DNA of 63,665 nucleotides, counting the filler, from Klebsormidium nitens (Eukaryota; Plantae; Klebsormidiophyceae), in assembly GCA_000708835.1 (NCBI GenBank). It is 5 parts of 5 records of this genome, joined end to end, with 100 filler letters (N's around TTAATTAATTAA, not from the genome) between each part and the next. Parts side by side here need not be neighbours in the genome. Positions count along the whole stretch, not along the records: positions 1 to 23,699 come from DF237879.1; 4 more parts are not named here. The stretch is one strand, 5' to 3'. Within the stretch, counting starts at the first letter, position 1; every line of letters starts with the position of its first letter. Below the pieces are notes generated by a model, which saw only the letters and a program-made list of their open reading frames with translations, did no database searches and was not told the origin of the DNA. Of the stretch, positions 1 to 30,050 are shown piece after piece. Both the position numbers and the translations under genes were made by a program.

Positions 1-1988
1 ATAGCTCCTATAGGCTGAGAGTCAGCTTTGTAGGGCCTACAGGCCTTGTTTTTGACGGTTTTCCGAGCTGGAAAAGGGAGCGCGTTTCCACGGGGCCTGT
101 TTCTAGCGGCCAGGCTTGACACCGCTGGATTTGGTGAAGGTTTGATAAAGATTCCAGATGGAGCCTAACCACTATTTCGAATGTTCAAGAAGATGCGCCC
201 CAAAGTCGCAGTTTGAATTTCACGATCTCGACGACCGTTCGCAAGTTATGCCACATCAGCATTTTATTATGCCCGATTATAAAGTCTGGGTGGTGGTTTA
301 AATGTGCAGTTCTATAGCCATCTTTTGAGGCCTATTTAGGGCAAAAATGCTATAAAATGGCAATATTTGGGGCGAAATGACATTTTTTCCGTGGGAATAT
401 TCTCCGAAGTACCCACAGAGTTCCCACATCGCTCCGGAGTTCCGCCGGCCGAAAATCACGATATCGACCGAATATGCTACGGCGCGCGCCCGAAAGAAAT
501 CGGTCTGCGGCAAATTTCCGCCGGGCTAAAAAGCACCGTAATTGTCCCGTGTGGCATTATACATCGTAATTTCAGAAATATGTACACTTACGTAAACTCC
601 GTTGTCTAGTGTGACGTGCCAGTTTAACCCGATTTCCCTGGCTGTACCGCGACGTGCTACAGTTCCGTGCAACCTGCACTATGAGGATACCAATATGTTC
701 TGTCTGAGGACGGCCCGCCCCGGCGGGTCAATCAATGGACTTTAATAAAGTAGTTCAATGTACGGAGTCCCTGCAGAAACTGAAAATAGAGACCGGGGCA
801 CCCTCCCACCCACCCCTTCTGTTACGGGCTCAACCCGTAAGTTGGGCCGACTAGTTGCGGAAGCTTGGAATGGTCGTGTGGGTGGAAGCTCGACTCAAAC
901 GCGAGAAGTATTTCTGTATTCGGAACTTCGCAATCCAACCCATTTTATAGTAAAGGTTTGCAGGCTAGTGCTGCAGCCTCCTTACTGGCTGGCAGTCTGC
1001 AGTCTTACTTAAAGTGGGCGTCGGGTTAAAAAACCCGATTTCCGGGACCAAATTTGGACATCGGCTCTGCGACTTTGGGCAGATTGACCGAACTGGCAAG
1101 CGCGCTCACCTTGTGAAAATGTTTAGATCCATCTCTTCCCGGTTCGATTCGACAACTTTGACATTTTTGCTCGCTTTCGCCCCTTCCTTTTTGCGGCCTT
1201 CAGCAGCTGACGTAGGATGACGTAGACCCTTCGGAACCGTGGTACCTTCCGGTACCGGACCTCCGGAGAGCATCCGGTCCCTGCCTGAAGGCCTAGGTTC
1301 GGTTGGTACCCGTATTCCTGAACGGTCTTGTACCGCCTGATCAGATTGAAATCCTCGACGTCTGATGACATCTCGGAATTGTCGATCGCAGGCGATGTGA
1401 CCGTCCGATCGGGGTGGACATGCATGTTCTACGCCCACTTTAAGACTGTGGCAGACCACGCAAGGGCGCTCCCCCATACAAGGGCACTGCCCTGTCAGCC
1501 GCCGCGTCACGTATGACAGGCTGGCTTTTGACAGTCTTGCAACCTTGTATTCGGATGGTTCAAGGATCCTTTAAGATTATGCACTTGATCAGTGACCGAA
1601 CGAGTATAGTCTATAGGATTCTTAGTAAGCCGCAGCTTTCTATTGAATCCTAGATGCCTTTAGTCTATTAGTCTATCTCGCTCTTAGGTATGGTCAATAC
1701 ATTCGGTATAGACTAATACTAATCGGCATCATGCCATTATTCTATAGTCAGTATTAGATATACTCTATACATTCCTATTCAGACTATACGTAGATACACT
1801 ATACTAATCGGCATTTGTTCGCGTGGCCTAATAGGCACTATAAAAGTATACTACTAGGGAATCTTAATAGAAGACGTATCTTAGTAGCATTACTACCGAA
1901 GTGTATTGCTACTATGTAGTCTTACTATATAAGAGACCTTTGATTAGTAGTATTTCCTATAGTCGGGCCTTTTCTTAGTAGTATTAGT

Positions 1989-2964
1989 TGTTGCCTTAAA
2001 GTCTGAAAGGTCTCAAAAAGTGAAGTGGTCTCGTGGCTCGTGTCAAAAGTCTCTTACAAGTCAAAATGGGCTGAGAACCAGGCTGTTTAGCCTGCGCACT
2101 GTAGGCCCCGGCAGTATTGCCTAGCAAGCAGTTCCGTTCCGTTCTGTAATGTTCCGTTTGGTCCGTTTTGGTTCGGAGTACAGCGTGGCGGTTTGTCCAG
2201 AGGAGTTCAAGTCGGACGTAGTCCGAGCTGGAGTGGTCGAAGGAAGGGAAGCAAGTGGCGCGTCCAAGACCATGTGCGCAAGTCGAAGTGTCCAAGATCG
2301 GAGTCGCGCACGTGTAGCAGAAGACACGTGGCAGGTTGTAGATAGAGGCGAAAATTGGGGCAGTGACGTCGAGTAGAAAGAAGGAAGGCGAAGGTAGGAA
2401 GGAGCGTTTCGTCTGGTAGTGCATGTAAGAAAGTCCTGGGCCGTAAGACAAGTCAGAAGGGGATAGGATCGAAACTAAGCGTATCATAAAGACGTGTAAT
2501 CAGCTTCGATGCGAAAGTAGGTCCTAGGAGGAGACTTGAGAAGTGTGCAGAAGAAACTCAAGAAGATTGTGACTCGTAGGCTCAGGAAAGAAGATAGGGA
2601 ACAACACAATTCGGGAGGGAAGGAAGAAGCACCACGTTTAGGAGCGCCTCAACTCATTTTCTCTACACGTCTCAAGCTGCTCTCGTTCGTGTCTTGATTC
2701 TGTGCATCATCCAACGCGACAGGCTGCTTGGCGCCTGGCGCGCGCGCGTGCTACGTGACTCATACTCATACAAGTCGAGGGGGAAGCACAGTACCCCTTG
2801 CACTCTCGCAAATCAGCATACAAAGGCGCGAAGTTCAGCAGCGCCTTCTCTGCATACGTTCGTTTTGGCATAGCACTCATTCTGTGGTGAGCCTGAAGGT
2901 TGCGCAAAGACTAGACTACATCAACGGAACCCCCCCTCTCAGTTTTTGAGAGACCGCGCAATCT
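1989..2964 (+). repeat. 5' LTR, lacking the terminal AAGGCAACA of the 3' copy
   Basis: Aligns by eye along its whole length with 12815-13807; matching stops after ...GAGACCGCGCAATCTT. Confidence 0.93.
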
Positions 2965-2981
2965 TGGTTCCGTCCCCGGGA
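2965..2981 (+). promoter_or_regulatory. Primer-binding site, tRNA-Glu-like
   Basis: TGGTTCCGTCCCCGGGA directly follows the LTR; its reverse complement TCCCGGGGACGGAACCA resembles the plant tRNA-Glu 3' end as I recall it (TCCCGGCAACGGAACCA). Confidence 0.7.
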
Positions 2982-3219
2982 TCCATCGCCACAGGAAGTG
3001 CTCTTCCGGTCGTCAAACCGGAGGAGACAGAGTGCGAGCAAAGACGGAAGCGCTCAAGAGACGATTCCAGACTTTACGTGGAGCCTTTCAGCCAAGGTGA
3101 GAAGAACGTGCAAAAAGTCCGAGCATTCCGTTTGTTTGACTTTCTCGGGTAATTTTGGGCTGAATTGTCTGGAAGGTGAGTTTCTCTTGAGGGTTCTTGA
3201 GTTCTGAGCTGAGGCCTTC

Positions 3220-4797
3220 GTGCATGTCGTTAAAAGGATGGGTCCAGACACCAAAGATGGAGAGGGAGTTCGTTCTCCTGAAGCCCAGCAAGGCATTGGC
3301 CTGGCTGATCCGAAAAACCAACCTGAAAGCCCCGAGAACGCCAGTCCTTCTACCAGCCAGCCCTTTCTACCTCAAAATCCAGAAGATAGTGATGAGGAGA
3401 GAATCAAGCAGGGCCTGGACGAGACAGCTGCTCTGAAATATAAAGCTTCCTACTATTATGCTCTCCAGGAAGAAACTGCTAGCTTGAGGGGAAGAATGGA
3501 TACCTTGTCAGCCAAGCTCGAGAGAGCTTCGGAGAAAAGCCTCCAGAAGAAACGCCAGAAGCACAGAATGCTGTCCTTGTAAAGATGATGGCAGATTAGA
3601 TGCAAGCCTTCCAGCAAACCATACAAAGTCAGCTGCAAGCAATGCAACAACAGATTGCTAAAAGTCCAACGAGGATAGAAAGCTACCGGCGTGTCTGCAA
3701 AGCCTGACCTATTGTCACCCCGAGCTGAAACGTCATTCCATGTAGCTCAGCCTGTCCCAAATAGCCCTAGAACTCCTCTCGAAAGTTTCAAGAACAGCCA
3801 AGAAACGTTTGGGACCAGACTTGGACCTTCCTCTCCGTTGCTTCAAGAAAATCCTACAACAAATGTCACAGCCAATCCTCTTTATAATGCCTCGAAGTTG
3901 AATAACATTGGAGCTGAGGCTCCACTAAAGCCCTCTTTTCCTGTGCAGCCAACACCTCCTTTGACCTTCAGCGAGACCCAAGTTCCACGTGTCCAAATTC
4001 CACCCTTAAATCAGATGCCTAAATATGATGGCTCGGAAAAACGATTAGCAGCCACGTCCTGGTTAATTGACTTAGAACAAATGAGGCCTCTCTACAATCT
4101 GCAAGATATTCACATAGTAGCTCTAGCAAGATGCTCTCTCGTCGGAGAAGCCCGCTCGTGGACAGAAACTCAGCCATTTAACCAGACCTGGGCCCAGTTC
4201 AAAAAAGCCTTCTGCCGAGAATGGGGGGAAAGAAATCAAGAGAAGTTGTTCGTTGAGATGCTTAATCATCAGCAGGGAGATTCCTCCGTTGGAGAGTATG
4301 CTACCAATATGTGCAGGTACTTCATGCAATTGGAAGTCTCGGGCGAGAAGCAGAGGGAGTATTTTGTCAAGAATCTCCGACCTGGAATTAAGGAGAGCAC
4401 CTTTTCTCGAAATCCAGTCACTCTTGTCGATGCAGTTGAAGTGGCCCGAGAAGCCGAAAACATGTACTACACTGTCAGCGGGAAGAGAGATGAACGTGGG
4501 ACAGAAGTCAAGGAGATCAAGAAGAAGGTCGAGATGCTCGCCCTTCAAAAAGCCAACTCAAATACTTCAGCTGTAAATGTCCAGGCTTCCTCTTATCCTG
4601 CAGGTCGACCACTTCGATGCCCCAAGTGTTTGCAAGAAGGACATGCGATTCTTAGGCTTTGCAACAATGAACCGAGAGTTCCGTTTCTCCCGTGCTGTAA
4701 CTATTGGGGGAGACATCGGTCAGGAAGCTTGTGTGAAGGTCAACCGATCCCTCCTTTGCCCAATAACCCGAGGAGACAAAATAACCAGCCTAACTGA
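3220..4797 (+). pseudogene. gag: Gag (N-terminal part frameshifted; 3691-4797 open)
   Basis: Retrotransposon gag core (AATSWL...LVGEARSW...TWAQFKKAF) and a CCHC-like knuckle CPKCLQEGHAILRLC. Confidence 0.85.
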
Positions 4798-5170
4798 AAC
4801 ATGATGGAGGAAATTCCCCTTTCTTATACTGATTCGGAAAGTCCAGAAGCTTCTGATGCGAGGCACGAAGTCTTTGCAGGTGAACCTTCGTCCGATTCCG
4901 CTTCTGGAGAAAGTGATTACGTCAGCTCTGACGTAGTATGTCTGATTCAGAAGACGAAGAGATCTTTGCAGGTAAACGGGCCCGGGAAAATGGCGGTCCC
5001 TCCCGTGGTGCTCCTGGAACAGCTCCACCTTCTAAACGTCAAAAAAAGACGCCTCACACAGCTCGCATAAGAAAAACCCGCCTAAACTAGTCAAAAATCC
5101 TCTTTCCGAAGACCAGAAACAGAAGATCCGGGAAACGAAAGCCAAGAACCGAGAGACGCTGTCCGAGCAG

Positions 5171-5937
5171 ATGCAGGGAATCGCGCGAGCACCTTTTAAA
5201 GACTGTTCACAAGCAATTTCGGCGCACCATCATGTAAAACATTTTCGAACAGATCTGCACAGGTACTTGGACAAGCTTCTCTTTCATTCCGTACACGAGA
5301 AGAAGGCGTGCAAGCCCGCGCGCGCGGCAAGTGGACACATGGCAGCAGAAGACGTAGTCGGAACACCTGGGCAGTCTAACGTAGCCGCTTTCACTCACAA
5401 AGAAATTATCGTGAAAGACTCTGTTTCTCCCCAGTCCTTTGTGCAGGATGAAGGTGACGGGACGGATGCGCTGTCCGCCCGCGTCTCGCGCCACGTGGCA
5501 CCAGCAGAATCAAATCTAACTGTGTACTGTGGGCTGCAGAACGCTTTTCGAAAGGATTATCCTATAAGGACGGAAGTCATGGCAGAAATCGAAAGATGTG
5601 GGGAAGTGCGGATAGGTTTGGACTCCGGAGCCACTTTCTCTGGCATCAACTTGAACGTCAAGTCGAGCAAGCGGGGTTTGCGAAAACAGTCAAGCCGACC
5701 AAAATGACCTACAGAACGTCTTCGGGGGAGATTCGGCCAGCCGAAGGAAAGGTGGTAGTCAAGCTGAGAATCGGGTCTCTTATCATCAAAGCTCCGATGG
5801 CCGTAATGCCCCGTGAGTGTTCGTACAACGTTCTGGTTGCTAGTGACATCATGGGACCCTTAGACGTGGACATCTGCCGCAGTCAGGATGCTGTCTTGTT
5901 TCACTTCCAAGTCGTGAATTTGCCATTCCGCTGTTAA
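5171..5937 (+). pseudogene. pol: Aspartic protease region of pol (frameshifted)
   Basis: IGLDSGATFSGI active-site motif; flap TSSGEIRPAEG and YNVLVASD in the next frame. Confidence 0.85.
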
Positions 5938-6291
5938 TGAAGCACACAGAACAGAAGGAAAGCCTTCCCGAAAGTTACTACGTGACTACGGTTGATGACT
6001 ACCCAGGCCCTTGGCTCGATCTGGTGCTCTCGTTTGAGGTTGCAGTCCCAAAAAACGTGAACAGTCCGCAAGCCCTGAAGGCCTAGGCGCCAAACCTGTG
6101 CGATCACGAAAGTTCTTAGAACAAATTCATGATGCTCCGTATATTCACGGGGTAAAGATCCAGTCAGAGCAGGACCTCGAGCTTGCGAGGGTGTGGTGTA
6201 AAGCCAATCATTTGAAGAACGGTCTGATCAAAAAGATTGTCAAGCAGGCGCGGCGTGCTTTACGAGACCCGGCAGTCCAAGGAAAACATGG

Positions 6292-7349
6292 TTGTACCCT
6301 AAAGGAGCGTCAGAACCGCCACCGGAGCTGAAGTTGGTTAGGATTAAACCCGCCTCGGAAACCACCTTCGAAACATACTCTCAACAGTCTAGAAAACAAG
6401 AATACACAGCCGAAGAAGTCGAGAAAATCTTAGCTGAGATTAAGCTAGGTGCAAATCTGACAGACGACCAGAAAGTTGAGTTGTCAGCAATGATCAGGCG
6501 AAATATTCACGCTTTCAGTCGGGATAAAGAGGATTTGGGTTACACTACCCTTATTGAGCATAAAATAGATCTTGTCAATGACACGCCGGTCAAAATGAAG
6601 CCGTTCAAGCTTTCATTCGAAGAACAGAAAGTAGCAGCCGAGTTCGTTCAAAGATTACAAGGAGAGGGCCAAATTCAATACAGCAAGTCTCCCTGGTCTT
6701 CTCCCGCCTTCCTAGTAGTTCCGAAGCCAAAGCCTAGGGAATACCGTTTGGTTTGTGGTTACAGAAGTCTAAACGCCCAGACCGTCCGTGGTCTATGCCC
6801 TTGCCTTTCATGTCCGATCTACAACAGCAATTGGGACAAGCCCGGTTCTTTGCGATGATGGACATCACAAGTGGCTTTTATGGCGTGCCAATGAAAAAGG
6901 AACACAAAGAATATACAGCCTTCTGGTTTCGGAATCTTGGACTATTTGAGTGGTTAGTTATGCCTATGGGTCTGAAGAACTCGCCCGCTACTTTTACCCG
7001 ATTACAAGAGCTTATCTTTCCGCCTCTGCAGTGGAATCGTTTTCTGAAAGTGTTCATTGACGACATGTGCGTGTTTGCGCACACTTTTGATGAGCTTCTG
7101 AGCAACCTTCAAAAAGTATTAGAACGTTTGATCTGGGCCGGTTTGAAGTTGTGTCCCCCAAAGTGTGAATTTGGGTCTGATTCGGTTGATTTTTTGGGTT
7201 ACCGGATCGGGGATGGAAAAATGACCATGTCAAACAAGAAAACAGAAGCCATTCGAAAGATTCTTCCCCCTTCAAATGTTAAGGAATTGCAGCAAGTTTG
7301 GGTCTATGCCAATATTATCGAGTGTTCATTCCAAAGTTTGCTCATATAG
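6292..7349 (+). pseudogene. pol: Gypsy reverse transcriptase (frameshifted)
   Basis: SKSPWSSPAFLV, YRLVCGYRSLN, MDITSGF, MPMGLKNSPATF, VFIDD and FLGY motifs. Confidence 0.95.
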
Positions 7350-7900
7350 CCCGTCCCCTAACTAGACTTCTAGGAAAGAAAGTCAACTTTGAGTGGTCGG
7401 AAGCCTGTCAAAAAGCCTTTGACTTCCTTAAAAATGCTCTTTGCTCTTATCCCATCCTTACCTGCTACAATTCGGAATACCAGTTAGTTCTTGATACGGA
7501 TTATCAAAAGACAGCCATTTCTGCAATACTTGGTATGCGTAATCCCGCACATAAGAAAGAACAAGCCATAGAATACGCTTCTTGTACTCTCAGTCAGTCA
7601 GAACAAAGGATTTCCACTACAGAAGGAGAACTCAGTGCAATTATTTTCGGTTTGCGCCGCTTCTCTGTTTACCTTCGCGGGCGACCTGAGTTCGTGGTTA
7701 GGACTGACCATAGAGCGTTAACCTGGATCGAGATTTTGAATCCCACTTCCGGAAAGTTGGCACGTTGGTTGTATCTAATCAAAGATGAATTCAATTTCAA
7801 AGTGGAGCACAGAGAAGGAAAAAGTCATCTTAATGCAGACGCCTTGTCTCGAGCGGTCGCGGAACATTTGCAAAACAATCCTGAGGTCGAACCCGTCTGA
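7298..7900 (+). pseudogene. pol: Gypsy RNase H
   Basis: LVLDTD...AISAIL, STTEGELSAII, VRTDHRAL, KLARW, NADALSR. Confidence 0.93.
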
Positions 7901-8742
7901 TGTTATCAGCCCTATACTTGCAGATTGGCAAAAGAGTGAGGAGCCAGCGCTTTTTCGAGACCAATGTGCAACTGTTAAGATTTTGCCGGCCATTTCTCAA
8001 AAGTCCATGTCTCGTTGTCTCCACGTCTCGTTTATGACAAACTTTCGTACGTTCTACGATGATGCGCACACCGGCCTGCCTTGGATAGTCATTTGGCATC
8101 CTACGTTTGAGAAACTCCACAGTGCTTGGTTCGGTTACTTTGCAGATCCGGATGATGCCCTGGCCCATCCGGAACTGTATGAGCGGGGACGAGACAATCT
8201 CTGGAAGTTAGCCCGGGGAGAATTGCTGACATTCTCGGAAGCCCAAACGTTTATCCAGTCTGCGATGGAGGTTTGCGAGGACATGGACGTTACAAGTCGA
8301 GGTTGGTTCTGCCTTTCTACTTACATTTTCCTTCTTATGCAGCAGGGCTTGCTTAAGCAAGGACGACACAAGAGCGGTCTACGAAGATACCTTTATACTC
8401 TACACAAAAGCGAACTCGCCCCTGAAGAGTATGCGGAACAAGTGGTTTCAATCAGCGTCAACCTGTCTGAAATGCTTTCGTTGAATTGATAGCCCTCAAA
8501 AGCCTTTATAATAACGTCAGTGTCTCTCATGGTGACGCAGGTTTGCGGTGCCCATGTCCGGAGACAGTCATGAGGATCCAGTCGTCGTGAAAACGTCATC
8601 ACGCTTCGAAGAAGTCTTCGCCGGAGAGAAGCGTAAAAGTCCTTCCCCGCCACGGGACGACCAAGGAGAGGCCAAGCGAAGCGAACCTCTGAAAGGTGAG
8701 CGGTCGGTTTCTCGAAAGTCTAAGTCTTTTCGGAAAAAGTAG
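7900..8742 (+). other. Unidentified coding segment between RNase H and integrase
   Basis: Long open frame (7785-8489) with a W/F/Y-rich helical-looking sequence, then an acidic/basic linker (8548-8742); no motif recognised. Confidence 0.6.
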
Positions 8743-8798
8743 GTCTAGGCTATTCTGATGAAGACCAGCAGCGTAAACGTTAGAAAGATTACCAGGGC

Positions 8799-10061
8799 TT
8801 GCACGAGATACGACACTTTTTAAAGTCATCGGAACTGCCAGCTCGAATCCTGGGAGCGACGACCCGTTACAACTTTAAAAGACGAGCCAGGGACTTCGTA
8901 ATTCTGAATGATGAGCTCTATATAAATGATAGAAAGCATCAGCCCTGTCGAGTCCTTTGGGAGAACGAAGTGCTCCCAACTCTAAAAAGTTGTCACCAGG
9001 AATAGGCTCACTGTCCAAAAGACAAAGGCAAGTTCCGGATTGAGGTGGAAGAAAGGTTCTTCTTTCCTCAGCTTAGTAATATCACAGCAGCCTTTATAGT
9101 TCATGTCCCGACTGTCAAAAAGAAAAAGCCGGCCGTGCAGAGCGCAGTGACCCGGAAATGAATTCGATGCCCCCTGTCTCCCCCTTTTTCAGAGTTCATT
9201 TAGACCTTTGTGGCTACTTTCTGGACGCAAAAAAGAAGAAGAAATATATTGCAGTCGGTATTGACGCTATGACCAAGTTTGCATATGCCCGTGTTCTTCC
9301 CAACCAAAAAGGCAGCTACGGTGGCAAAAGGTTTTAAAGAAGAGATACTGCTGCGACATGGCTGCCCTTTCGAACGGGTTGTTAGTGATAGAGGTACAGA
9401 GTTCCATGAAGAATCTGAAAGTCTACTGCGTGACGAGAAAATGAAACAGATCAGAGTTCGCCCGCGGAATCCAAAAGCCAATGGACAAGTGGAACGTTTC
9501 ATGCAAATACTAAAGTCAACTCTGAGAAGCATGTGTCACCGAAAGCCTACCGATTGGGAAAAACACGTGTCCGCCGTTGTCTTTCAATATAACGTCACTT
9601 CTCAGGAAACTATCAGAATGATTCCGTTTATGTCACGGTGTCTTTATGGTCGTATTCCGATCACACCAGCCGATCAACTTTTCAATTAGTCTTACCGTTC
9701 CTCTTTCTTGGATGCAGAAGTTAACTTTGAGGCACAGCTGGATAGACTGAAGACGTTGGAACATCTACAAAGACAGTCAAACCTTCTAATTGAACAGTCG
9801 CAAATCAAAGAGAAAGAAAATTATGCAGGGTGGAGTCTTAAACATAAACCTCGTTCTGATCCTATAAAGCCAGGCGATCTTGTCATTATGCAAGCAGCTG
9901 GAGCGATCCGAGGGTTCCGACTTCATTGGGACGGTCCGTTTGTCTTTGATGGCTGGTCTGGTCCACCTGAAAACCGAATCGCTATCATTCGAAATCCAGA
10001 TTCCGGGAAGATTTGGACGCGCCCGCAAACCGAAATCCTAAAGTTCACTTCAATGCAGTAA
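8799..10061 (+). pseudogene. pol: DDE integrase with Zn-binding N-terminus and GPF module
   Basis: CHQE*AHC zinc region, RVHLDLCG (D), VVSDRGTEF (D), ANGQVERF (E), WDGPF motif; interrupted by stops and frameshifts. Confidence 0.92.
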
Positions 10062-10085
10062 TTTCTGGATACTCACATTTTTCCG

Positions 10086-12764
10086 TTGCAAGGGAATCGA
10101 GCTGAGACGGAAGCGGAAGCGGAACACGAGAATGACCTCGAAGTACCCTGTATCATACCGCCAGGTCTTGATGGCTTCCGCAGCGGAGCCGCGGAGACGA
10201 TTCAGATAAATCAGAACCGTCAAGGAGACCAGTCAGACGGCGAAGAAAACCTAAGAGATTCCGTACTAAAGACCGCCAAAATTCATGTTCCGGGGACGAC
10301 GAGGAGACGAGGCAGCCCCCGTTCGGAGCTGAGCCAGACGCGACCGCTGCCGGAAAAGCTGCATGTGAGCAACCCTCTGTACCCAACGCCCAAAACGTCG
10401 AAGAGTACGACTCCGATGTCAAACTGGAGTGGGACTCGACTTGGGGAACTGCTCAGCCAACCGCAGACGGAAAAGACGGAAACTTTCTTGCGGTCAGTCA
10501 AGAGGCCCATAGAACGCGTAGGTCAACTAAGCTTGGGACCCCGGCCAGTCGGACAATATCTTCCCACCCCACTTACATGCCTTCCTGAAAAAGCCCTTCT
10601 GAACGTTCTCAGCCGTTTAGATACGGACAGTGTGTGTAACTTCGTAAACGTCTGTCGGGCCCTCCACGTGATTGGACACCGTCTAAAATGTCTGCACTTT
10701 GCGGTGTATCTCGTGTGTCTGAAGACTTGCTAGTCAAGATGAAGCTACTCAACGAAACAACCGGCCTTCCGTTCAAACCCTTGGACCAATCTTCCACACA
10801 TTCAGCAGCCATCCAGCTTACACTGGCCATGCATTTGCATGGGAGACTGCCAGCTGGAAGTGACTTACGGCAGCAGTTGCATAAACAGCTAAGGAAAATA
10901 ATCCTAGACGGTCCTCTTTTTGAACAAGCAAGTCTTTCCGTCGGAAAAGTCTTTCCAGCTGATGAATCCAGAGTGGATGGATTACCTGGAGTGGTTTCGG
11001 TCATTCGGAAGCGAGGGAGAACCGAAAGTCGACTTGATCGCAGACCTGGAGTACCGGAACCTCGATCCCGTGCTTGAGCGAGGGCTGTGTCTCGAAAATC
11101 CATACAGTATTAGCTACCACTTTCGACAGTTTTTCCCCAAGTCTCAAGGGGGATTGAACATTCTGTATGACAATTCACAAAAGCCTGTCTCGTCCTCAAA
11201 ATTGCCGCTACAGATCCGACGACATGCGGAAGAGTTAGCGCGGGCTGAACTTTCGCCGGAGCGAGCTAATGTCCCTTTGATGCGGCAACATGTAATTCTG
11301 CATGATGTTCTGCCCTCCGAACTGCGATCTTTACCAGGGGTTTCTATCGTTACAAGTGGGGCCGAGTCCACCCTGACACGCACGGAAACGTCACCGGAGC
11401 GAGACATGCCACGAGACAGCCCGGGAAGTCAGCATGTCTTCGTAACTTCGCCAGCGAACCCGTCCCCAAAAGCCCACACGGAGTCATCAATAGCCCCTCC
11501 GTCGAGTGCCCCGATGGAAGTCGAAGCTGAAGACCGGGAGAAAGCCGCTATCCGGGAACGTCTGAGAGCGTCGAGAGAGCGGGAAGTTGTAGCAAAACCA
11601 GAAAGACAGTCGGGCTTTCAGGGTGCAAAAGTCACGGGTCAGGTGGAGATGTCTCGCGCTGAGGAAAACGTCTACGAACGGTTAACGAGGTACTTCCGCT
11701 ACCAGGCAGTGCTCAGCTTAGCCTTCAACATAGCCAAAAGACGTCACAATCTGTTGAAGAGAAATCCTGACGCCATAGACGGATATGCGCAGAAGATGAA
11801 GGAGCTGGTCGATGGGATTTTGCACTTCCCCCTCCTCTGGAAAGGCAGTCGCGAAAACCGAATGGTGAAGTACGCGGCCAACTTGTACGAACTTTACTTC
11901 GAGGAGTGCGATTTTGACCGTCAGTCCCTAAAGTCATTCATGGAGGCGGACTGGAAAGCATCCGGCCAAACCGTAGAGAGCCCTCAAGCCTAGATGGAAA
12001 GAACGGAACCAGACTTCGCAGACCTCGCGCGGCGCCAGTTAGCCGCTTATTGGAACCGAGCAGAAGGCCTTCTTTCGCATAGGGTGGACCTGCCCCTTTT
12101 CATGACGTGCTCGGAACCTGCCCAAACAGCCGAAAACAGAAACAACGCCCCCAGTTCTCGTAACTTTTCCCCGGAATCAGTCACCCGCGAAAGTCCACCA
12201 AGAAGCCGACCTTCGAATGTGTGGAAACCCCCGGTAACGCCCCCAGTGAACCGAGACGAAATGAGGTTTAGAAAGCCAAGCGAAAAGCGGACGTCACTCT
12301 TTCCGATTCCCCCGGAAGAGAGGCATGAAAGCCGGAAACCGTTCAGCCCTGTTTACGGACAGTCTTCCCAACTTCTGGACGAGCCCCCGTACCCAGGCAA
12401 GACCCTTTCGTCTTCTTCGCTCTTTTCCCAAAACTACACGTCTATTCCCAATGTCATGGCAGAGGCGTATCGGTCCTTAGATTTCCAAAACGTAGCGCGC
12501 CCGAACGAGTCGACCACTTTTGCGCCGGCAAGTCCCCTTCCAACCAAGGTGATCAACTGGAGGCACGAAGTGCACCGGTTTGATTACGCGCACCGGCAAG
12601 TCGTCATAACCAAGGAGGACAATCGGCATCCCCAGGGGCTGCTGACGTCAAAGACGGAATACATGGACCTCTTGGAATACCAAAGAAGCGGTAGGAGTGA
12701 GAACGAACACACAAAAGTCAGCATCAGCCAACCACCTCCCCATTACAGCCTAGATAGATTCTAG
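10086..12764 (+). pseudogene. Sense accessory ORF(s) after integrase, containing an F-box-like motif
   Basis: Overlapping ORFs 10086-10733, 10688-11077, 10920-11993 and 11994-12764; LTCLPEKALLNVLSRLDTDSVCNFVNVCRALH at about 10572-10670. Confidence 0.7.
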
Positions 12765-12794
12765 CTTTAGGTTGCAAGGACGCAACCTTTCTGT

Positions 12795-12823
12795 GGAGGG
12801 GAGAAGGCAACAGCTGTTGCCTT
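12795..12823 (+). promoter_or_regulatory. Polypurine tract followed by a perfect 20-bp palindrome spanning the 3' LTR start
   Basis: GGAGGGGAG (12795-12803), then AAGGCAACA-GC-TGTTGCCTT (12804-12823). Confidence 0.9.
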
Positions 12824-13816
12824 AAAGTCTGAAAGGTCTCAAAAAGTGAATTGGTCTCGTGGCTCGTGTCAAAAGTCTCTTACAAGTCAAAATGGGCTGA
12901 GAACCAGGCTGTATAGCCTGCGCAGTGTAGGCCCCGGCAGTATTGCCTAGCAAGGAGTTCCGTTCCGTTCTGTTCCGTTCCGTTTGGTCCGTTTTGCTTC
13001 GGTGTACAGCCTGGCGGTTTGTCTATGGGAGTTCAAGTCGGACGTAGTCCGAGCTGGAGTGGTCGAAGGAAAGGGAAGCAAGTGGCGCGTCCAAGACCAA
13101 GTGCGCAAGTCGAAGTGTCTAAGATCGGAGTTGCGCACGTGTAGGAGAAGACACGTGGCAGGTTGTAGATAGAGGCGGAGATTGGGGCAGTGACGTCGAG
13201 TAGAATGAAGGAAGGCGAAGGCAGAAAGGAGCGTTTCGTCTGGTAGTGCATCGTCTGGTAGTGCATGTAAGAAAGTCCTGGGCCGTAAGACAAGTCAGAA
13301 GGGGATAGGATCAAAACCAAGCGCATCATAAAGACGTGTAATCAGCTTCGATGCGAAAGTAGGTCCTAGGAGGAGACTTGAGAAGTGTGCAGAAGAAACT
13401 CAAGAAGATTGTGACTCGTAGGCTCAGGAAAGAAGATAGGGAACAACACAATTCGGGAGGGAAGGAAGAAGCACCACGTTTAGGAGCGCCTCAACTCGTT
13501 TTCTCTACACGTCTCAAGCTGCTCTCGTTCGTGTCTCGATTTTGTGCATCATCCAACGCGACAGGCTGCTTGGCGCCTGGCGCGCGCACGTGCTACGTGA
13601 CTCATACTCATACAAGTCGAGGGGGAAGCACAGTACCCCTTGCACTCTCGCAAATCAGCATACAAAGGCGCGAAGTTCAGTAGCGCCTTCTCTGCATACG
13701 TTCGTTTTGGCATAGCACTCATTCTGTGGTGAGCCTGAAGGTGGCGCAAAGACTAGACTACATCAACGGAACCCCCCCTCTCAGTTTTTGAGAGACCGCG
13801 CAATCTTAAGGCAACA
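12815..13816 (+). repeat. 3' LTR
   Basis: TG...CA ends with an 11-bp terminal inverted repeat; near-identical to the 5' LTR apart from substitutions and small indels, e.g. a 15-bp duplication near 13238-13267. Confidence 0.93.
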
Positions 13817-14017
13817 TAGTATCCTTAATTTAATTAAGACTCTACTAAGTAGCGAAGCCTCTATTCGAAGATTCCGAGGAACCTTTTGTTTACGTGAACT
13901 CGGTGAGTTCGTTCGCCCGCATAATCCGGGAAGAGTTGGGATGCGACCAGCCGCGGTTCCGCGCAGTCCATTCCGGTCGGGCCGGTACCAGTCCGGCTGG
14001 TATGTGGTCCGGCGACG

Positions 14018-14170
14018 GACTTAGACAATGTGCGCGAGCCGCCAGCGATCTAGGGCCGACAAGTCTTAAGCTGATAGACTTAGACTATGTGCGCGAGCCG
14101 CTAGCGATCTAGGGCCGACAAGTCTCAAGTCTAGTAGAGTACCTTCAAGCGATCTAGGGCCGACAAGTCT
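14018..14170. repeat. Tandem repeat (about 59-bp unit, 2.5 copies) in the chromovirus LTR
   Basis: GCGATCTAGGGCCGACAAGTCT occurs three times; GACTTAGAC(A/T)ATGTGCGCGAGCCG occurs twice. Confidence 0.9.
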
Positions 14171-14289
14171 GAAAGTCTAAGTCGCCCTATCGCATAAGGT
14201 TCGGCTGGTTCAACGAATTGAACCTAGCACACGATTTTGGTAGTAAGGGGGAGAGTCGGGATAGAAGCCAAAAGAGTGCAACCGTTACA

Positions 14290-17200
14290 CACCTCCCTCC
14301 TTTAATCAACGTCCTCGTTGGTGGAAGCAGAAGCAAAAGCTAAAGCAACCCTATCGGCGTTGACGTTTTGGGTTCTTTAAAGACCTACGGAAGTAGAACC
14401 CGACGCGGGACGTTTGCGTGTAACCCGCGCTATGCCGCCTATCTTTGCCGCACCCCGACCCAGGGGAGGGTCGTTAGGCGAAGAAACGGAACGGGCACGC
14501 GGCCAATACTCTTTAAGAGAAATTTTGACATCAGTGAGATTTGCGACTGGCTCCCACGAATTATGCTCTCGTCCATAATTCTTCCAGGCGATCCGGGTAC
14601 CATGCAAAACGACGTTTGCCCTTACGAGTGTACCTATGATCTAGGATCCTATCGACTTTATATTCCAAGGCACCTTCAATTTCGGTTGGAGGTTGCGGGG
14701 GCTGGTGTCGCCCGTCGGCTCGATAAGGCTCAATCAAAGAAACGTGAAACACCGGGTGAATCCAATAATGAGCGGGCAAATCGACTTTATAGGCTAAGTT
14801 GTTAATTCGCTGGACAACTTTAAACGGGGCCTACGAAACGAGGTAAGAGCTTAATAGAGCCGGTGAAGCGAATATGAAGATTCCTGGAGCTTAACAGCAC
14901 CAAATCGCCTACCTCATACAAGACTTCACGGCGCTTTTGGTCGGCAAACGTCTTCTGCAGCGCCTGCGCTTGGGCCAAGGACGCTTTAGCCTTGGAAAGG
15001 CCCAACGAGATGCGCTCTGCAAAAGAGGTGGCTCCGGGGATCAAAGATACCGGAATGCGCCCAACGGGTGCCTTGGGCTGACGACAAAAAGTAAGTTCGA
15101 AAGGGGAGGCTTTAACCGACTCTTGCCAAGCAGAATTATAAGCAGATTTAGCCATAGGCAAAAGAGTGTCCCAATCAAACTAGTCGGCACAAACAAAGTG
15201 ACGAAGAAACGTTTCCATAGTCCGATTAAGCCTCGTCGTTAACCCATCCGTTTGAGCATGATAGGAACAACTAAGAGCAAGTCGAGTACCAATCAACCTG
15301 GTAAGTTCTGTCCAAAACTTCCTAGTAAAACGAGGATTGCGATCGCTAATGAACTTATCAGATAAGCCGTGATGCTTAAAGACATTGTTCAAATAGAGAT
15401 GAGCGAACCCTATTGCGTCGACTGTCTTGGTGGTCGGGACAAAATGGCCTAGCTTTGTTAAACGATCAACAAAGACCGCCAAAGAGTCAAACCCACGCTC
15501 AGTCGTCGGCAAATCGGTTACAAGATCAAAAGAAACACGCTCAAATGGGTCGTTAGGTGTCTGGTTGATTGTAACAAACCGGCAGCGTTTCGTTGCCGAG
15601 GCTTATTGCGCTGACAAATAGTACAAGTAAGCACAAAACGACGGACGTCCCCTGTCCGACCGTCCCAACGAGAGAGTTTTTCGACTGCCTTTTGGGTCTT
15701 ACTTATACTATACCGGTGTGGCCGCCATAATGCGTATCATGATATTCAATCACGATCGTTCGCCGAATCTCGAAGGTGTCGGCGGTGGCAGGCACATAGA
15801 TGCGACCATCTTCTATAACTAGACTCCCTGAAGTGATACGCAGTCGTCGGCCCGCAACGTTGTTTACATCTCGCAGCGTTGCCGGGTCCTTGGTATACGA
15901 CGAAGCCAATGGCTTCCTGAAGAAGGAGAGGTAAGCCAAACTTACTTGGATGCGTACGCCTTGTGAAGACCTCGCTGGCAGCTTACACCGGATGGGGTTG
16001 GCCGACCGCCACGACCGGCGTGCTAAGCTCTTCATCCCGCAAATGTTTGAGGCAGGCAGCGTCACTCACGGGGAACTGGCTTAACGGGTCTGCAACGTTA
16101 GACCTACCAGACCTGTAGACCCATTCAAAGTCAAACCGTCGAAGAAACTCAGACCAACGAGCCATACGCCTGCTCAGATTTTGTTGCGTTTGGAGAAACG
16201 TATTTGGACAGTGATCAGTTATGACAGTAAAATGCGTACCTTCAAGGTAGCACCGCCAAACCGTCTTGAAACAATGAATCACAGCCAAGAGCTCCTGTTC
16301 ACCGGTTGAGTAATTATGCTCAGCCGGAGAAAGCTTTCGGGACTCAAAGGCAACAGGACGTACGATCTTCTTGTAACAGGACCCCGGCAACTCCTAAAAG
16401 CGACGCGTCGCTCACCACCGTACATGGTTTAAAGGAGTCCGGCGACACCAAAACGGGTGCTCGACAAAGGGCCTTAATACCAAGAAATGCCTCTTGTTCT
16501 CTGGTCGACCATTCAAAAGGCTTATTTGCTCGCGTCAACTCGGATAGCGGCGCAGCAAGAGTCGAGAAGCCTTGAATGAAACGTCCGAAGTAGTTAGCCA
16601 AATCAAGGAAGAATCTTACTTGGTGCACATCGTTCGGGATCGCCCAATCAGAGACCACTCTGACCTTGTTGGGGTCTGGTTTGATGCCGTCAACTCCGAC
16701 GATGTGGCCGAGGAACTTGGTCTCGCTCTGCACGAAAGAACTTTTGTCTTTACAAACATAGAACCTTTTGCGACGCAAGATTTCCAAGACCTTTCGCACA
16801 TGAGCCTCATGCTCTTCTTCGGACTTGGTGAAGATAAGAATATCATCAAGATAGACTACGACGAAGTTCCGAAGATAAGGCTCAAAGATGCTGTTCATGA
16901 CAGATTGGAAGGTAGCGGGAGCGTTAGTTAAACCAAAGGGAAGAAGTGTCCATTCGAAGCCTGTGTCCAAAAGGCGTTCTGAAAGCCGTTTTCGGAACGT
17001 CGGCTTCGGATATTCGAATTTGCCAATAGCCGGGGTCAGATCCAAGCTGGTAAAGAATTTACCACCCGAAACCGTATCCAACATGTCATCGATACAGGGA
17101 AGAGGATAACGATTCTTAACAGACATCTAATTCAACATTCTATAGTCCACGCACATTTCAGACCGCGGTCGTTAGGCTTAGGGACAAAGAGAGTCGGGGC

Positions 17201-17640
17201 GCCGTAAGGACTCGTGGAAGGCTGAACTTTTAGACCAGTTTCCAAAAGAAACATTATCTGCTTTTTCGCTTCTTTCAATTCCAAAGGTGACAAACGATAG
17301 AGAGTGCGAAACGAAGGTGTGTGGCCTGATTTGGAATCCATGCGAACGGTTCCGCTTGGGTGGCAATTCTGGAGGCAGAGGGTCCTGAAAAACATCCACG
17401 AAATCCTTCAACATTCTATCAATCAAGAGTCTGGAGGTCTCACCCGGTAGCGGTGGGTCCTTGAGTAAAGCCAAAAACATTGGCTTACCCTTGCGAATTT
17501 GTGTGACGATTGGGCGATGGTTAAGTCTAACCGCACAATCGCACGGCAGTTAAACCTTCGGGTTTGCCAGTTTGTCGACGTGTCGGCATGTGGCCAGTAT
17601 TGACGTGACATAATTAATTGTAATTATGCCACCGGCTAAG
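14290..17640 (-). mobile_element. Degenerate Ty3/Gypsy chromovirus (PR-RT-RH-INT-chromodomain); its 3' LTR starts at 14289 and is interrupted by the 1989-13816 element
   Basis: YLDDIL RT, SDAS RNase H, VFVDRLTK/SDRN/QTDG integrase, HPVFHVSL, chromodomain WKNYGREHNSWEP; minus-strand PPT AAAGGAGGGAGG shortly before TGTAACGG. Confidence 0.92.
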
Positions 17641-22943: not shown

Positions 22944-23799
22944 AGAAGAGCAAGCTGCATGCGCCCTTAGCCCAAGTTGGCAATCCAACAAAGACTCTTC
23001 TCGCCAAAGTCAATTGATGAACGTGCACGTGTTTATAAGGCACAAATAAACGATACTTATAAGCCGCCACATCATGCATTGATCTCGTGCTTGTTGGGCC
23101 TCACGAATCCACGAACTATGCTTGTGGTGCTCGCCACCAGTTACGAGGTGTAAAAGTGTGTTACATAGTCCTCAAAAGAGTTCGAAATGAACTCTTTTAT
23201 ACTATGAGTTAATTTTTCCGTTCCTATGTCCCGAAATTCCTTGCTCATAGTATAAAGTTTTCCACTTTGAAGTGACCTGGCAACTATCAATCTAACTACT
23301 TTTCTAGAAAGATATCTCTATAAGACGTAGTATAAACTTTTCTAGGGATGATCGGATTGAGAACTATATGTAAGTACACACTTAGGGACAAAACCTGACT
23401 TGAGGCGTTATCGCCCTAAGTCAGTGCTCGGATGGTATTACGGCACCTGACACAACTGGGTATCGGCGACCGTCAGGGGCCATTCGACCCCGTTTCGCCC
23501 TACTTGACCCTTTTAGCCGAGGGGGGCTGACGTGGCGGCCCCTGAGTGGCCCCATTTTTATGCCGAACTTCATTTGGCTTGCTGGAACGCGAGCACCGAA
23601 TACCCCGCGATAGCGGCAACGGGACGGTTGATCAAGATGCAATATTTTGTTGAGGCCCAGGCGGGGGCCCGGGGCCCGGGGGGGCTCACTTTTTTAGGGN
23701 NNNNNNNNNNNNNNNNNNNNNNNNNNNNNNNNNNNNNNNNNNNTTAATTAATTAANNNNNNNNNNNNNNNNNNNNNNNNNNNNNNNNNNNNNNNNNNNN

Positions 23800-24187: not shown

Positions 24188-25063
24188 TCAGGAGAGCAGA
24201 ATCCGCTCGTACGTCTCACGGGGGATGTGCACCAAGCCGGCCCTGGTGGGTACCTGGGGCAGGCCGTACGTCGAGATGGACGCCAGGCCCGCCCTCGCGG
24301 CGACCTGCTCCGCGTCGCGTTTCTTGACGTGAGCACCGCTGCCCATCTGGAAGCCGCACACGAGCACCACGACGTCGAAGAGATCCTGGTCGCCGCCCCC
24401 CTTGAACGTGCCCCGCACGCGGTACACGGGAAGCATCTCCTCGCCGTACCCGCTGTTGTTGAGCCCCCGGGCCGTCAAAAACGAGTGCGCTGCCTGCATT
24501 ATTCTCAGTAGTTTGTCCTTGAAATTCGAATCGAATTCGACCTCACCGAAGTCGCTTCGATCCAAAAGTGGATGCAAGAACCTACGGCAAGCCGAGATCC
24601 CTAGGTCGATGAACACGGCGCCCACCATCGCCTCGAAAGCGTCCTCCAACTTCTTGGCGTTCAGGTTCCAACCGGAAGCGATAGCCTTGTCGCACATGAG
24701 AATCAGATCCTGCAACCCCAGCTCGGATGCCCACCCCGCCAGCGTGGACGTCCGCACGAGTTTCGTTCGGACCCTCGTCAGGAAGCCCTCCTGCTGATCC
24801 GGATACCTGTCGAATATGTACTTGGTCACCACGATGTTCAGGACGGAGTCTCCCAAGAACTCCAGGCGCTCGAAGTCGCCCTCCAGCACGTACTCCCCCA
24901 ACGCTGACTTATGCGTCAGGGCCCGCACGTACACTCCCAGGTCTCTCGGCCTCAGCGGCTCCCCTTCTCCGACGAAGCGGTTCAGAGCAGCCTCTATGGT
25001 ACGCCGATTCACGTTCCGCGCCTCCAGCAGGACCGCGCCGTCCCTGCGCTCGCTGTCCATCAT
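24188..25063 (-). CDS. rnc: Ribonuclease III with dsRBD, NCLDV (phycodnavirus-like) type
   Basis: ALTHKS, ERLEFLGDSVL, QEGFLTRVRTKLVR, LEDAFEAMVGA and dsRBD KKRDAEQVAA; intronless. ORF is open to 25180, likely ATG at 25063. Confidence 0.93.
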   Translation of the reverse strand: MMDSERRDGAVLLEARNVNRRTIEAALNRFVGEGEPLRPRDLGVYVRALTHKSALGEYVLEGDFERLEFLGDSVLNIVVTKYIFDRYPDQQEGFLTRVRTKLVRTSTLAGWASELGLQDLILMCDKAIASGWNLNAKKLEDAFEAMVGAVFIDLGISACRRFLHPLLDRSDFGEVEFDSNFKDKLLRIMQAAHSFLTARGLNNSGYGEEMLPVYRVRGTFKGGGDQDLFDVVVLVCGFQMGSGAHVKKRDAEQVAARAGLASISTYGLPQVPTRAGLVHIPRETYERILLS

Positions 25064-25101
25064 CTCGACGTTGCTGTCAGACCTCGAAAATAAAGACGGC
25101 G

Positions 25102-25263
25102 TCACGACCGAATCTTCGTGACGTCGATGCTGTCCGGGCTGTCGTCCTCGTCCAGCAAGCCCGCCTCCTCCCGTCGCCACCTGTGCACGGTACGCAAGTA
25201 GGCGAGCGCTGCGAGAGCCGCCAATGCGAACAGAGTGATCGGGTCGTCAAAGAGTGCGAGCAT
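25102..25263 (-). CDS. 53-aa single-TM protein
   Basis: MLALFDDPITLFALAALAALAYLR..., followed by an acidic tail; compact spacing as in viral genomes. Confidence 0.5.
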   Translation of the reverse strand: MLALFDDPITLFALAALAALAYLRTVHRWRREEAGLLDEDDSPDSIDVTKIRS

Positions 25264-25335
25264 CCTGACCCTTCCCTTGCATATACGCACCGTAGAATAA
25301 TTATCGGAACATATAGATACCATACAAACTCTGAA

Positions 25336-25502
25336 ATGGCCAGAACGAAGGGCACGCACTCTCCGACACGCAAAGCTCCGAAAGGCAAAGCAGGGGATCA
25401 CAGGCTCCACGAGGTCAAGCGAGGCGCGGACGGCAGGAACTGGGTGGTGGGGAAGAGGACAGACGGCACCAAGTTCTGGCACCACCAGTCCCTCGGAAAG
25501 AA
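25336..25502 (+). CDS. Basic repeat protein, copy 1 (truncated by gap)
   Basis: MARTKGTHSPTRKAP...KRGADGRNWVV; paralogous to 25908-26399. Confidence 0.7.
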
Positions 25503-25907
25503 NNNNNNNNNNNNNNNNNNNNNNNNNNNNNNNNNNNNNNNNNNNNNNNNNNNNNNNNNNNNNNNNNNNNNNNNNNNNNNNNNNNNNNNNNNNNNNNNNN
25601 NNNNNNNNNNNNNNNNNNNNNNNNNNNNNNNNNNNNNNNNNNNNNNNNNNNNNNNNNNNNNNNNNNNNNNNNNNNNNNNNNNNNNNNNNNNNNNNNNNNN
25701 NNNNNNNNNNNNNNNNNNNNNNNNNNNNNNNNNNNNNNNNNNNNNNNNNNNNNNNNNNNNNNNNNNNNNNNNNNNNNNNNNNNNNNNNNNNNNNNNNNNN
25801 NNNNNNNNNNNNNNNNNNNNNNNNNNNNNNNNNNNNNNNNNNNNNNNNNNNNNNNNACGTACCGTAGAATAATTATCGGAACATATAGATACCACAGAAA
25901 CTCTGAA

Positions 25908-26399
25908 ATGGCCAGAGTGAAGGGCACGTATAAGATCAGCAAGTCTCCAACACGCAAAGCGCCGAAAGGCAAGGCAGGGGATCACAGGCTCCATGAGGTC
26001 AAGCGAGGCGCGGACGGCAGGAACTGGGTGGTGGGGAAGAGGACCGACGGCACCAAGTTCTGGCACCACCAATCCATCGGAAAGAAGTCGACTCCCGGCA
26101 GGAAACTCCCCCCTTGGGCGGCATCCTGCTTCAAGTACGGCACCCACAAGCGGGGACTAGACGGGTGCGTCTACAGCGCCTTCAAACCCCGAGGTGGAAA
26201 GATCTTGCGGTGGAGACACACCACAGGCGGCCCCGAATGCGGCAACTGGTCGAAAGGACCCCCACGGCAGGCGCCAACCGAGCCCGCAGGTCAGTACCCA
26301 TCGAGAACCAGGAAGAAGGGGCACGACGGGCGCATGTGGAGGGTCGTCAAGCACAGCAACCACGTCCACGTCTGGCACCGGGTGCCTAGAGCTACATGA
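25908..26399 (+). CDS. 163-aa basic protein with three RxxPxxxA...KxGxDGxxW...W repeats (giant-virus-like)
   Basis: Repeat cores KRGADGRNW, KRGLDGCVY and KKGHDGRMW. Confidence 0.75.
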   Translation: MARVKGTYKISKSPTRKAPKGKAGDHRLHEVKRGADGRNWVVGKRTDGTKFWHHQSIGKKSTPGRKLPPWAASCFKYGTHKRGLDGCVYSAFKPRGGKILRWRHTTGGPECGNWSKGPPRQAPTEPAGQYPSRTRKKGHDGRMWRVVKHSNHVHVWHRVPRAT

Positions 26400-26597
26400 T
26401 CACTTCTTGGTCCACACCTTCCGCGTCGTGGCAGCCTGTCGAGTCTTGGCCCTCGGAGAACGTCGCGCTGAAGCAGTCGACGTCTTCCTCCTCGCAGCCC
26501 GGCCGTGCGTCGCACATCTGTCCCCTACCAACGCAGTCATCTTGCACCTCTTTTCCAGAACGGTCAGAGCGGCACAACGAATCATAATAGAGAACAT
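26400..26597 (-). CDS. 65-aa basic C3H zinc-motif protein (DUF5763-like)
   Basis: RCAALTVLEKRCKMTALVGDRCATH plus an Arg/Lys tail; its stop codon abuts the convergent gene's stop. Confidence 0.55.
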   Translation of the reverse strand: MFSIMIRCAALTVLEKRCKMTALVGDRCATHGRAARRKTSTASARRSPRAKTRQAATTRKVWTKK

Positions 26598-28526: not shown

Positions 28527-30050
28527 ATGGCGTCGTCTCGCTTGGTAGCCACCCGCTTTCAGCCTAATCGAGCAGCCGTACTGCCTCCTCCATCCGAGAG
28601 ACAGCACCATCTTCAATCGGTCCCCCTGCAGAGGGCACAGAGGGTTTTCAACACGACAACCACCAAGTACCTCCAGATGCTAGCCCGTCTAAAATGGGAC
28701 AGGGACAGGAAGGGAGTGGGGTGGTGGATGCGCGAGACATCCGAACGGATGGCCCCTGTTCGTAAAACAGGGGCCATCACCACCACTGAGACGAATTTCG
28801 TGCAATTCGTCTCAGTGCGTGGGGAGGGTCTGATCCCGAGATCCTAGAAGAGCTGGTCAAACTGCAAGACTCTGTCACTCCGTTCGACTCTAACTCTTAC
28901 CAGGAACTCTTGTAAAGTTACAGTGTGCCGCCAGGCGCGGCACCCATTGCTTGTGGGTCAGTGGCTGCAGTTTACAAGGGCCGCACGCGGGACGGCGAAG
29001 CAGTTGCGATCAAGTTCGTCCGGCCCAACCTGTGAGACTCATTCCTGCAGGGGCTCAACGACATGCAATCCTTCTGCCAGATTCTGAAGAGCTTGCGCGT
29101 GGAAGGGAGCGAAAACATCTCGGAGATGCTCACAGAGATACAGCCGGTCATCCTTGGGGGAAACGGACCTTAACAGGCGCACAACGCAAGGGCATTTCGA
29201 GACTCCTTGGAAAGGGTTGGTCCGGGTGCCAGAGGTGCTGGCAAGCTGGAACGGCTGGCTTGTCATGGATTATGTACTGATTGTAAAGATTGACGACGTG
29301 GAGAATGTCAAGGACCGCATCTCGGCGCGGATGGTGTCGCTCCGATTTGCGGCATGTTTCGCACCTAAAATAATCCAGAACGGGCTCTTCCATGCAGACT
29401 TGCACAGTGGAAAACGCCGGAATAACGGAGGAGGGACAGCTAGTGTTTTACGACTCCGAGGCCGTCATCGCCCTCGGAGACTCGCCTAGAAAGTATATGA
29501 AAGACCTCTTTCGAGCGTTCACGACAGAGAACGCGCAGACGGTCGTGGACTCTTTGGCGGGCATGGGAGTCCTGGACCTCAGCAAGTGTCGCAACTCGAG
29601 GGACACCAGGAGCCTCACGGAGGCGGTCCAGGCGGTCATGGGACAACTGCTACAAGCAGGCAACCCAGAGGGCGTACATGCCATAGTAAAGGAGCAGAAA
29701 GATCTCAGGAGGAACCAGTCGCGGGTGTTCAGGCCCAGGCTCGAGTTCCTGTACTTGCTCAGAAACTCTGGCATGGTAGATGCAACTTGCCGAAAGTTGG
29801 ACCCCCTTTGGGACTCTGCGGAAACTCTTAAGTCTATCCTGCCCAACCCTCCAATGGATTCGGCTCTCCTTGCGGTCGTATGGCCCGAGAGGTCTTTGTG
29901 GACACCCCGAACTTGGTGAAGACGCTCCCGACGAGCCTTCAGAGCATCAGAGAGAAGACAGACGTATTGCGAGACGACTTGAAGATTAATAGGAACATTC
30001 TGTATATATGGCTGACCCTAGTCAGCGTTATACCGACAAACCATTCATGC
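28527..30050 (+). pseudogene. ABC1/UbiB atypical kinase, intronless and multiply frameshifted; probably viral
   Basis: ELVKLQDSVTPFD, PIACGSVAAVYKG, VAIKFVRP and GLFHADLHSG motifs spread across frames. Confidence 0.85.

Follow-up and report, generated by a model that had tools for sequence, protein, structure and literature searches.

A Ty3/Gypsy retrotransposon of Klebsormidium nitens with its right tip stored beside the polypurine tract: a layout that suggests joining of the cDNA ends before integration

The circle with two long terminal repeats (LTRs), the 2-LTR circle, was reportedly put forward as the integration precursor by Panganiban and Temin in 1984 and is said to have been argued over since, with linear DNA winning for retroviruses; for LTR elements this route is usually regarded as a dead end. 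Here, we describe a Ty3/Gypsy element in a 63,665-nucleotide stretch of DNA from Klebsormidium nitens (assembly GCA_000708835.1; the whole stretch is called the window below), the layout of which suggests that the ends of its complementary DNA (cDNA) may be joined before insertion. Among the described systems, the integrase of foamy virus is reported to cut a palindromic junction with a 2-nt spacer, and only 2 nt are lost from the junction to the provirus (PMC1180852), while HIV-1 reportedly keeps 2-LTR circles in reserve, which are re-linearised and then integrated (PMC4372172). These reports, which stand as partial exceptions to the linear-DNA rule, agree with the preliminary description of this DNA, according to which retroviral integrases can cleave palindromic LTR-LTR junctions. 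In IS3, IS30 and IS256, a DDE enzyme integrates a circle via a junction of two inverted ends and a short spacer (PMC7780238), and in Ngaro and PAT elements the split direct repeats follow the order A1-B1-A2-B2 (PMC4157794). A 4-bp target-site duplication (TSD) is given for Phygy, Selgy and TatI (Neumann 2019, PMC6317226); in the same source Phygy is short, has an NCGN TSD, a primer-binding site (PBS) mostly for tRNA-Trp and no extra open reading frames (ORFs), and a tRNA-Glu PBS is not dominant among the plant types tabulated.

The element spans positions 1989-13816 (11.8 kb; its features lie on the plus strand of the window); direct reading shows it to be bounded by TG...CA and flanked by a 4-bp TSD, TAGT. 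The left TSD (1985-1988) is followed by TGTTGCCTT from 1989. The 5' LTR (1989-2964) opens with TGTTGCCTTAA and closes with GCAATCT (2958-2964), and TGGTTCC, the beginning of the PBS, stands directly after it, from 2965. The 3' LTR (12815-13816) closes with GCAATCT (13800-13806), T (13807) and the 9-nt right tip AAGGCAACA (13808-13816), which is not present in the 5' LTR, and the right TSD follows at 13817-13820. The same tip, letter for letter, is found 3' of the purine tract at 12804-12812, where GC and TGTTGCCTT (12815-12823) come after it. This stored tip, the 2-nt spacer and the start of the 3' LTR form a perfect 20-bp palindrome, AAGGCAACA-GC-TGTTGCCTT (12804-12823), the longest among the nine perfect palindromes of at least 14 bp in the 63.7-kb window. 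The terminal inverted repeat of the element is 11 bp long. Alignment of the cores of the two LTRs shows 17 transitions, 14 transversions and 19 gap columns (Kimura two-parameter distance 0.033); neither a TATA nor an AATAAA motif was found in the LTR.

We compared this layout with the contigs of four DNA sequencing runs, all of one sample and possibly the assembly's own source. A contig of 9909 nt over 2936-12844, present in two of the four runs, was unbranched and showed five differences and no gap; contigs over 2638-6392 and 2742-4855 span the PBS junction, and a contig across 13778-13881 carries the tip, the TSD and the flank with no differences. Every junction of the layout, from the PBS border through the palindrome to the flanked tip, is present in contigs; an assembly error is therefore not the explanation. 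In empty paralogs of the target repeat, 1988 is followed directly by 13830 (three of the four runs) or by 13833 (all four) with one TAGT, indicating that the two borders and the TSD of 4 bp have been placed correctly and that the tip is part of the element. Thus, the geometry given in the preliminary description was confirmed: the 5' LTR abuts the PBS without the last 9 nt, in the direct reading as well as in the contigs, the missing 9 nt stand after the polypurine tract (PPT) as a palindrome over the 3' LTR start, and the TG...CA ends and the 4-bp TSD are fixed by the empty-site paralogs.

At 80% likeness, the LTR had two entries (from the host flank and from the PPT palindrome) and two exits (into the PBS and into the tip with its flank) among the matches listed, and the element is therefore single-copy in the source sample. 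A diverged related LTR occurs in the same sample, on a 5575-nt contig of run X2 that matches 13306-13392, within the inner LTR only. The insertion lies in the 3' LTR of a multi-copy Gypsy element of the chromodomain type (820-14288, minus strand; about 1637 bp without the insert), and contig coverage is deeper on the flanks of the insert; the chromodomain motif is presumed. The whole target element spans 820-17550 on the minus strand, and its LTR contains short repeats of 45-59 nt at 14018-14174.

The PBS (2965-2982, 18 nt) is tRNA-Glu-like: a pattern derived from it met 17 loci in viral contigs, eight of which had tRNA genes at the match, and all 12 tRNA genes under the pattern are tRNA-Glu and agree with the PBS at 15-16 of 18 nt after CCA is added, the genes compared being those of the viral contigs. 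An 8-mer of U5, ACGGAACC (2924-2931), is complementary to PBS positions 2966-2973 (p ~0.002, counted over the LTR's last 100 nt), and its sequence makes an anti-PBS stem or a Tf1-like self-primer possible. The final 4 nt of the PPT, GGAGGGGAGAAGG (12795-12807), double as the first 4 nt of the stored tip, an overlap that the preliminary description leaves out; as the purine run extends 4 nt into that tip, the reading given below needs an RNase H cut within the run. In murine leukaemia virus, purines stand directly 3' of the RNase H cut.

In retroviral copying, the right part of a cDNA LTR is taken from the RNA just upstream of the PBS and its left part from just past the PPT. With the PBS and the PPT of this element, the cDNA ends would read AAGGCAACAGC-TG and CAATCT(T), and AAGGCAACA would consequently be untemplated at the right end. 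Three features meet in one and the same 9-mer, which is missing just before the PBS, present past the PPT and present again inside the TSD, where the element closes on the right. The chance of meeting it no more than 7 positions upstream of the 3' LTR is p ~4e-5, or 9e-3 when AAGG is granted free as PPT purines, and a 20-bp palindrome anywhere was obtained in three of 300 resampled elements.

We consider it probable, with real room for doubt, that the layout is heritable, that the right tip is stored by the PPT, and that insertion takes place only after the cDNA ends have been joined. tRNA-Glu would prime the minus strand at 2965, so that both cDNA LTRs would end in GCAATCT, with one T added if the last A of the tRNA were retained. 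The plus strand would be primed past GGAGGGGAG, and both cDNA LTRs would begin with AAGGCAACAGC-TGTTG. Blunt joining of the right end to the left, either through the end-joining of the host, which would give a 2-LTR circle, or through a jump of reverse transcriptase (RT) across the ends, would build TT-AAGGCAACA-GC-TGTTGCCTT-AA, a palindrome of 24 bp. The integrase would then nick 3' of CA on each strand with a 2-nt stagger (CA^GC^TG), giving two processed ends at once, and strand transfer would make the 4-bp TSD. As the same layout would be regenerated in each cycle, it would be heritable. Judged from the sequence, every base would be explained if the ends were joined and integrase then cut with a 2-nt stagger. 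The stored unit CA-GC-TG is built like a junction whose spacer is 2 nt long, and the joined end brings the inverted repeat up to 11 bp, by which the junction would be distinguishable from the palindrome inside the element.

The join would probably be made via a circle, but a template jump of RT would leave an identical scar. Integration from a 2-LTR circle, as proposed in the preliminary description, is partly supported, in its base-by-base logic and in the presence of a DDE integrase, the covalent circle being a candidate form of the join. Likewise, the additional T, which had been ascribed to a retained 3' A of the tRNA, fits that origin (HIV-1 retains the last A of its tRNA primer), although self-priming by the 8-nt U5 match would give a T too. 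A broader claim, namely that the whole Ty3/Gypsy lineage must circularise, with the 2-LTR junction as the sole substrate of the integrase and a linear cDNA without a right end, can be put forward only tentatively, and we lean slightly against it.

Like the element, foamy virus and HIV-1 have a palindromic CA-NN-TG junction from which a cut by integrase yields two processed ends in one step. However, both of their LTRs are complete, their linear DNA is competent and their circles are optional, whereas the linear cDNA of the element is predicted to be without a right end, so that joining would be obligatory. IS3, IS30 and IS256 are DNA transposons without RT, and their transposase builds the junction from flanking DNA; in the element, by comparison, the spacer and one arm are encoded within. 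The likeness to Ngaro and PAT noted earlier extends to the order of the repeats (A1...B1-A2-B2) and to nothing beyond it: B is only 9 nt long and inverse to the start of A, the element has a DDE integrase and a TSD, and no tyrosine recombinase was found in 29 scanned frames, 27 of them frames of at least 100 aa on both strands of the element (a few frames went unscanned).

With the plant non-chromovirus Ty3/Gypsy types (Phygy, Selgy, TatI) the element shares the 4-bp TSD, and with Ty3/Gypsy elements the order gag-PR-RT-RH-IN (protease, RT, RNase H and integrase after gag), a Ty3 capsid, a DDE integrase, TG...CA, a PBS and a PPT. It differs from Phygy, Selgy and TatI in LTRs that are unequal at the right tip, in the 11 nt with a palindrome arm between PPT and TG, in a tRNA-Glu-like PBS and a TSD that is not NCGN, and in a stop past RNase H, an orphan ORF and an integrase that has a frame of its own and carries an F-box tail. 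No description of this layout stood among the papers listed in a literature search; Repbase and subscription journals lay outside it, as did the element-level table of PMC6317226, which could bear on the layout of Phygy copies.

If the broader claim is true, the circle-precursor model of 1984 would be the normal life cycle of this lineage, and the element would be a reverse-transcribing counterpart to copy-out/paste-in insertion sequences. An obligatory junction would make it a natural test case, for which dependence on end-joining, a defined junction of circular DNA and characteristic mis-cut insertions are predicted. LTR finders that assume equal TG...CA repeats could then miss such families or mis-border them. 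The F-box-tailed separate integrase and the orphan ORF of the clade are further unexplained traits.

Several observations weigh against joined ends as the normal route. A CA dinucleotide that is absent from the preliminary description lies 4 nt upstream of the PBS (2959-2960), and in ordinary loci the PBS stands 1-5 nt past CA in all 11 PBS matches (10 of 80 metagenome loci), as scored with presumed PBS motifs. The PBS side by itself thus looks ordinary, and what carries the case is the tip within the TSD together with its copy past the PPT. The RNase H cut that is needed would leave a short primer of nine purines, the AAGG of the PPT could seed a one-off palindrome, and the internal palindrome should invite wrong cuts. 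The evidence comes from one dead copy; neither a second copy nor a solo LTR was present among the matches listed in the source-sample contigs, which drop rare forms, and no circle junction was present among them either, contigs being uninformative on circles; no RNA run was listed for the stretch, which is equally uninformative on expression. Among the matches listed, none of six collection scans for relatives returned DNA of the clade. Finally, linear DNA is the accepted retroviral precursor (PMC11054761), and in flies 2-LTR circles are minor, making up 2% of nomad and 12% of copia circles (PMC12951756).

Four other explanations were weighed. The layout could have arisen by private accidents in an ordinary family: the 5' LTR of this copy would have lost its last 9-10 nt, and a separate fold-back template switch would have perfected the AAGG/CCTT palindrome. 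This would suit a single copy with many frameshifts and stops, the more so as the AAGG at the end of the PPT is naturally complementary to CCTT and two other indels are found in the LTRs; still, two independent events on one 9-mer would be needed, one of them stopping exactly at the PBS, and with p for the second event set generously its value is still 9e-3, so that we regard this origin as unlikely. Slightly more doubtful again is a heritable snap-back without joining: the 3' end of the plus strand (TT) would pair with the AA past TGTTGCCTT in the LTR to which it belongs, thereby copying the tip, and 11 nt would be removed from the left end by integrase. Here, the TT/AA match behind the 11-bp inverted repeat is the pairing needed and the palindrome forms a hairpin when folded (z -1.96), but the pairing meets a mismatch after only 2 nt, and no reason is given for a copy of the tip being kept past the PPT.

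The CA upstream of the PBS also permits a scheme in which linear integration proceeds normally via that CA, at its ordinary distance from the PBS, and the present copy is a rare exception, inserted from a 2-LTR circle after a cut at its junction, a cut of which retroviral integrases are capable. We find this improbable, since that CA gives an inverted repeat of 2 bp against the perfect 9 bp of the stored arm, and the 11-nt gap between PPT and TG is left unexplained. An assembly artefact at the LTR borders might be suspected from the gaps and filler in the window and from the runs being perhaps the source of the assembly; given that PBS junction and palindrome, the flanked tip and empty sites all occur in contigs of the runs, it is largely refuted and hardly credible.

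The copy itself is dead: it carries frameshifts and stops, and the contigs confirm them with no gaps. A broken gag with a Ty3 capsid domain (3208-4797; Pfam PF19259, E 4e-10, and PF03732, E 9e-7) is followed by a frameshifted aspartic protease region (5036-5937), where the match to PF13650 is weak and below the cut-off (E 0.07). RT and RNase H (6149-7900, frameshifted) were recognised by Pfam RVT_1 and RT_RNaseH and by tblastn, and the closest solved structure to the RT is that of Ty3 RT (E 5e-74). A stop comes soon after RNase H, as in four relatives; in four of six proteins the RT-RNase H frame stops 23-35 residues past DxLSR, the other two being without the motif and outside the clade. The interval between RNase H and integrase holds an orphan ORF, ORF X (7896-8489), of about 160-200 aa, which is conserved in the clade with three homologs at 52-62%, one of them on a contig equal in length to that of an integrase homolog. 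It belongs to no Pfam family, has three representatives among 1.84 billion, one of them a likely chance match, and its fold is not predictable (mean pLDDT 45).

The DDE integrase (8554-10061, broken) occupies a frame separate from RT-RNase H and has a zinc-binding domain; its closest solved structures are Ty3 integrase (E 4e-16) and then that of foamy virus. The spacing from the second D to E is D-34-E, in the window (~9380-9500) and in 11 of 13 relatives, the two motifs not both being found in the remaining two, whereas the spacing in Ty3 is 35. A C-terminal extension of the integrase (10062-11123) carries an F-box at 10570-10680 (Pfam F-box, E 6e-6), which is fused to the integrase in relative P0055 and which, speculatively, could recruit an SCF ubiquitin ligase. 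A further open frame upstream of the PPT (11994-12764) has no Pfam family and no match among the fetched proteins.

On the evidence of its protein sequences, the element is placed in Ty3/Gypsy (Metaviridae), in a clade of its own. RT-RNase H precedes the integrase, the RT is closest to Ty3, and TG...CA ends, a short TSD, a PBS and a PPT are present; two equal LTRs, each closing in the att CA, are not, as the 9-nt tip is missing from the 5' LTR. Protein relatives comprise eight RTs at 48-79% among 24 matches and 13 integrase matches, in addition to the ORF X homologs. An RT tree (FastTree, midpoint root; 80 sequences, after 44 near-duplicates were dropped from 124 collected; built without Phygy or Selgy reference elements) united the element and nine protein relatives in one clade with support 1.0, a clade without any fetched DNA locus. 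The element is set apart from chromoviruses by an F-box in place of the chromodomain, for which there was no match, and by its RT clade. It also differs from Tat/Ogre/Retand elements, as ORF X has no Pfam family where those have an archaeal-type RNase H, and two loci presumed to be Tat-like from their PBS motifs (L042 and L060) cluster apart. From Phygy it is separated by description, having the TSD TAGT, a Glu-like PBS and 11.8 kb with extra ORFs.

The loci listed by the scans for DNA of the clade were distant. Nine loci in viral contigs had an RT identity of 34-40%, three in genome contigs were at 31-37%, and the best 80 of 422 confirmed stretches from metagenomes, a set from which closer relatives may be missing, did not exceed 44%, none of these being a clade member. 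By the clade integrase alignment, two sets of candidate stretches, of 26 and 61, contained no clade member, nor did the 37 candidates of the ORF X scan; the palindrome pattern had no match in viral contigs. The only near locus with a readable PPT (L010) has an ordinary PPT/LTR border, and the PPT of the target Gypsy element lies 2 nt from its TG, which is the ordinary layout as well; hence, the stored tip is not a general feature. Seven loci with ATCCA-NN-TGGAT past the PPT were considered as candidates for the same layout and rejected, the LTR being ordinary in all three in which the other end was readable.

Elsewhere in the window, positions 24188-37979 hold frames resembling RNase III and the large subunit of ribonucleotide reductase, GC-rich and, by eye, with no obvious introns; read in the same way, this part looks like an insert derived from a giant virus. 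Gaps of 100 nt at 23700-23799, 38586-38685, 44813-44912 and 58926-59025, with TTAATTAATTAA filler in the middle, are a mark of assembly and not biology. Frames at 45221-49871 resemble an NB-ARC-type NTPase, behind which come TPR repeats of 126-nt period, and remnants of a Copia-type integrase and RT lie on the minus strand at 61223-63141.

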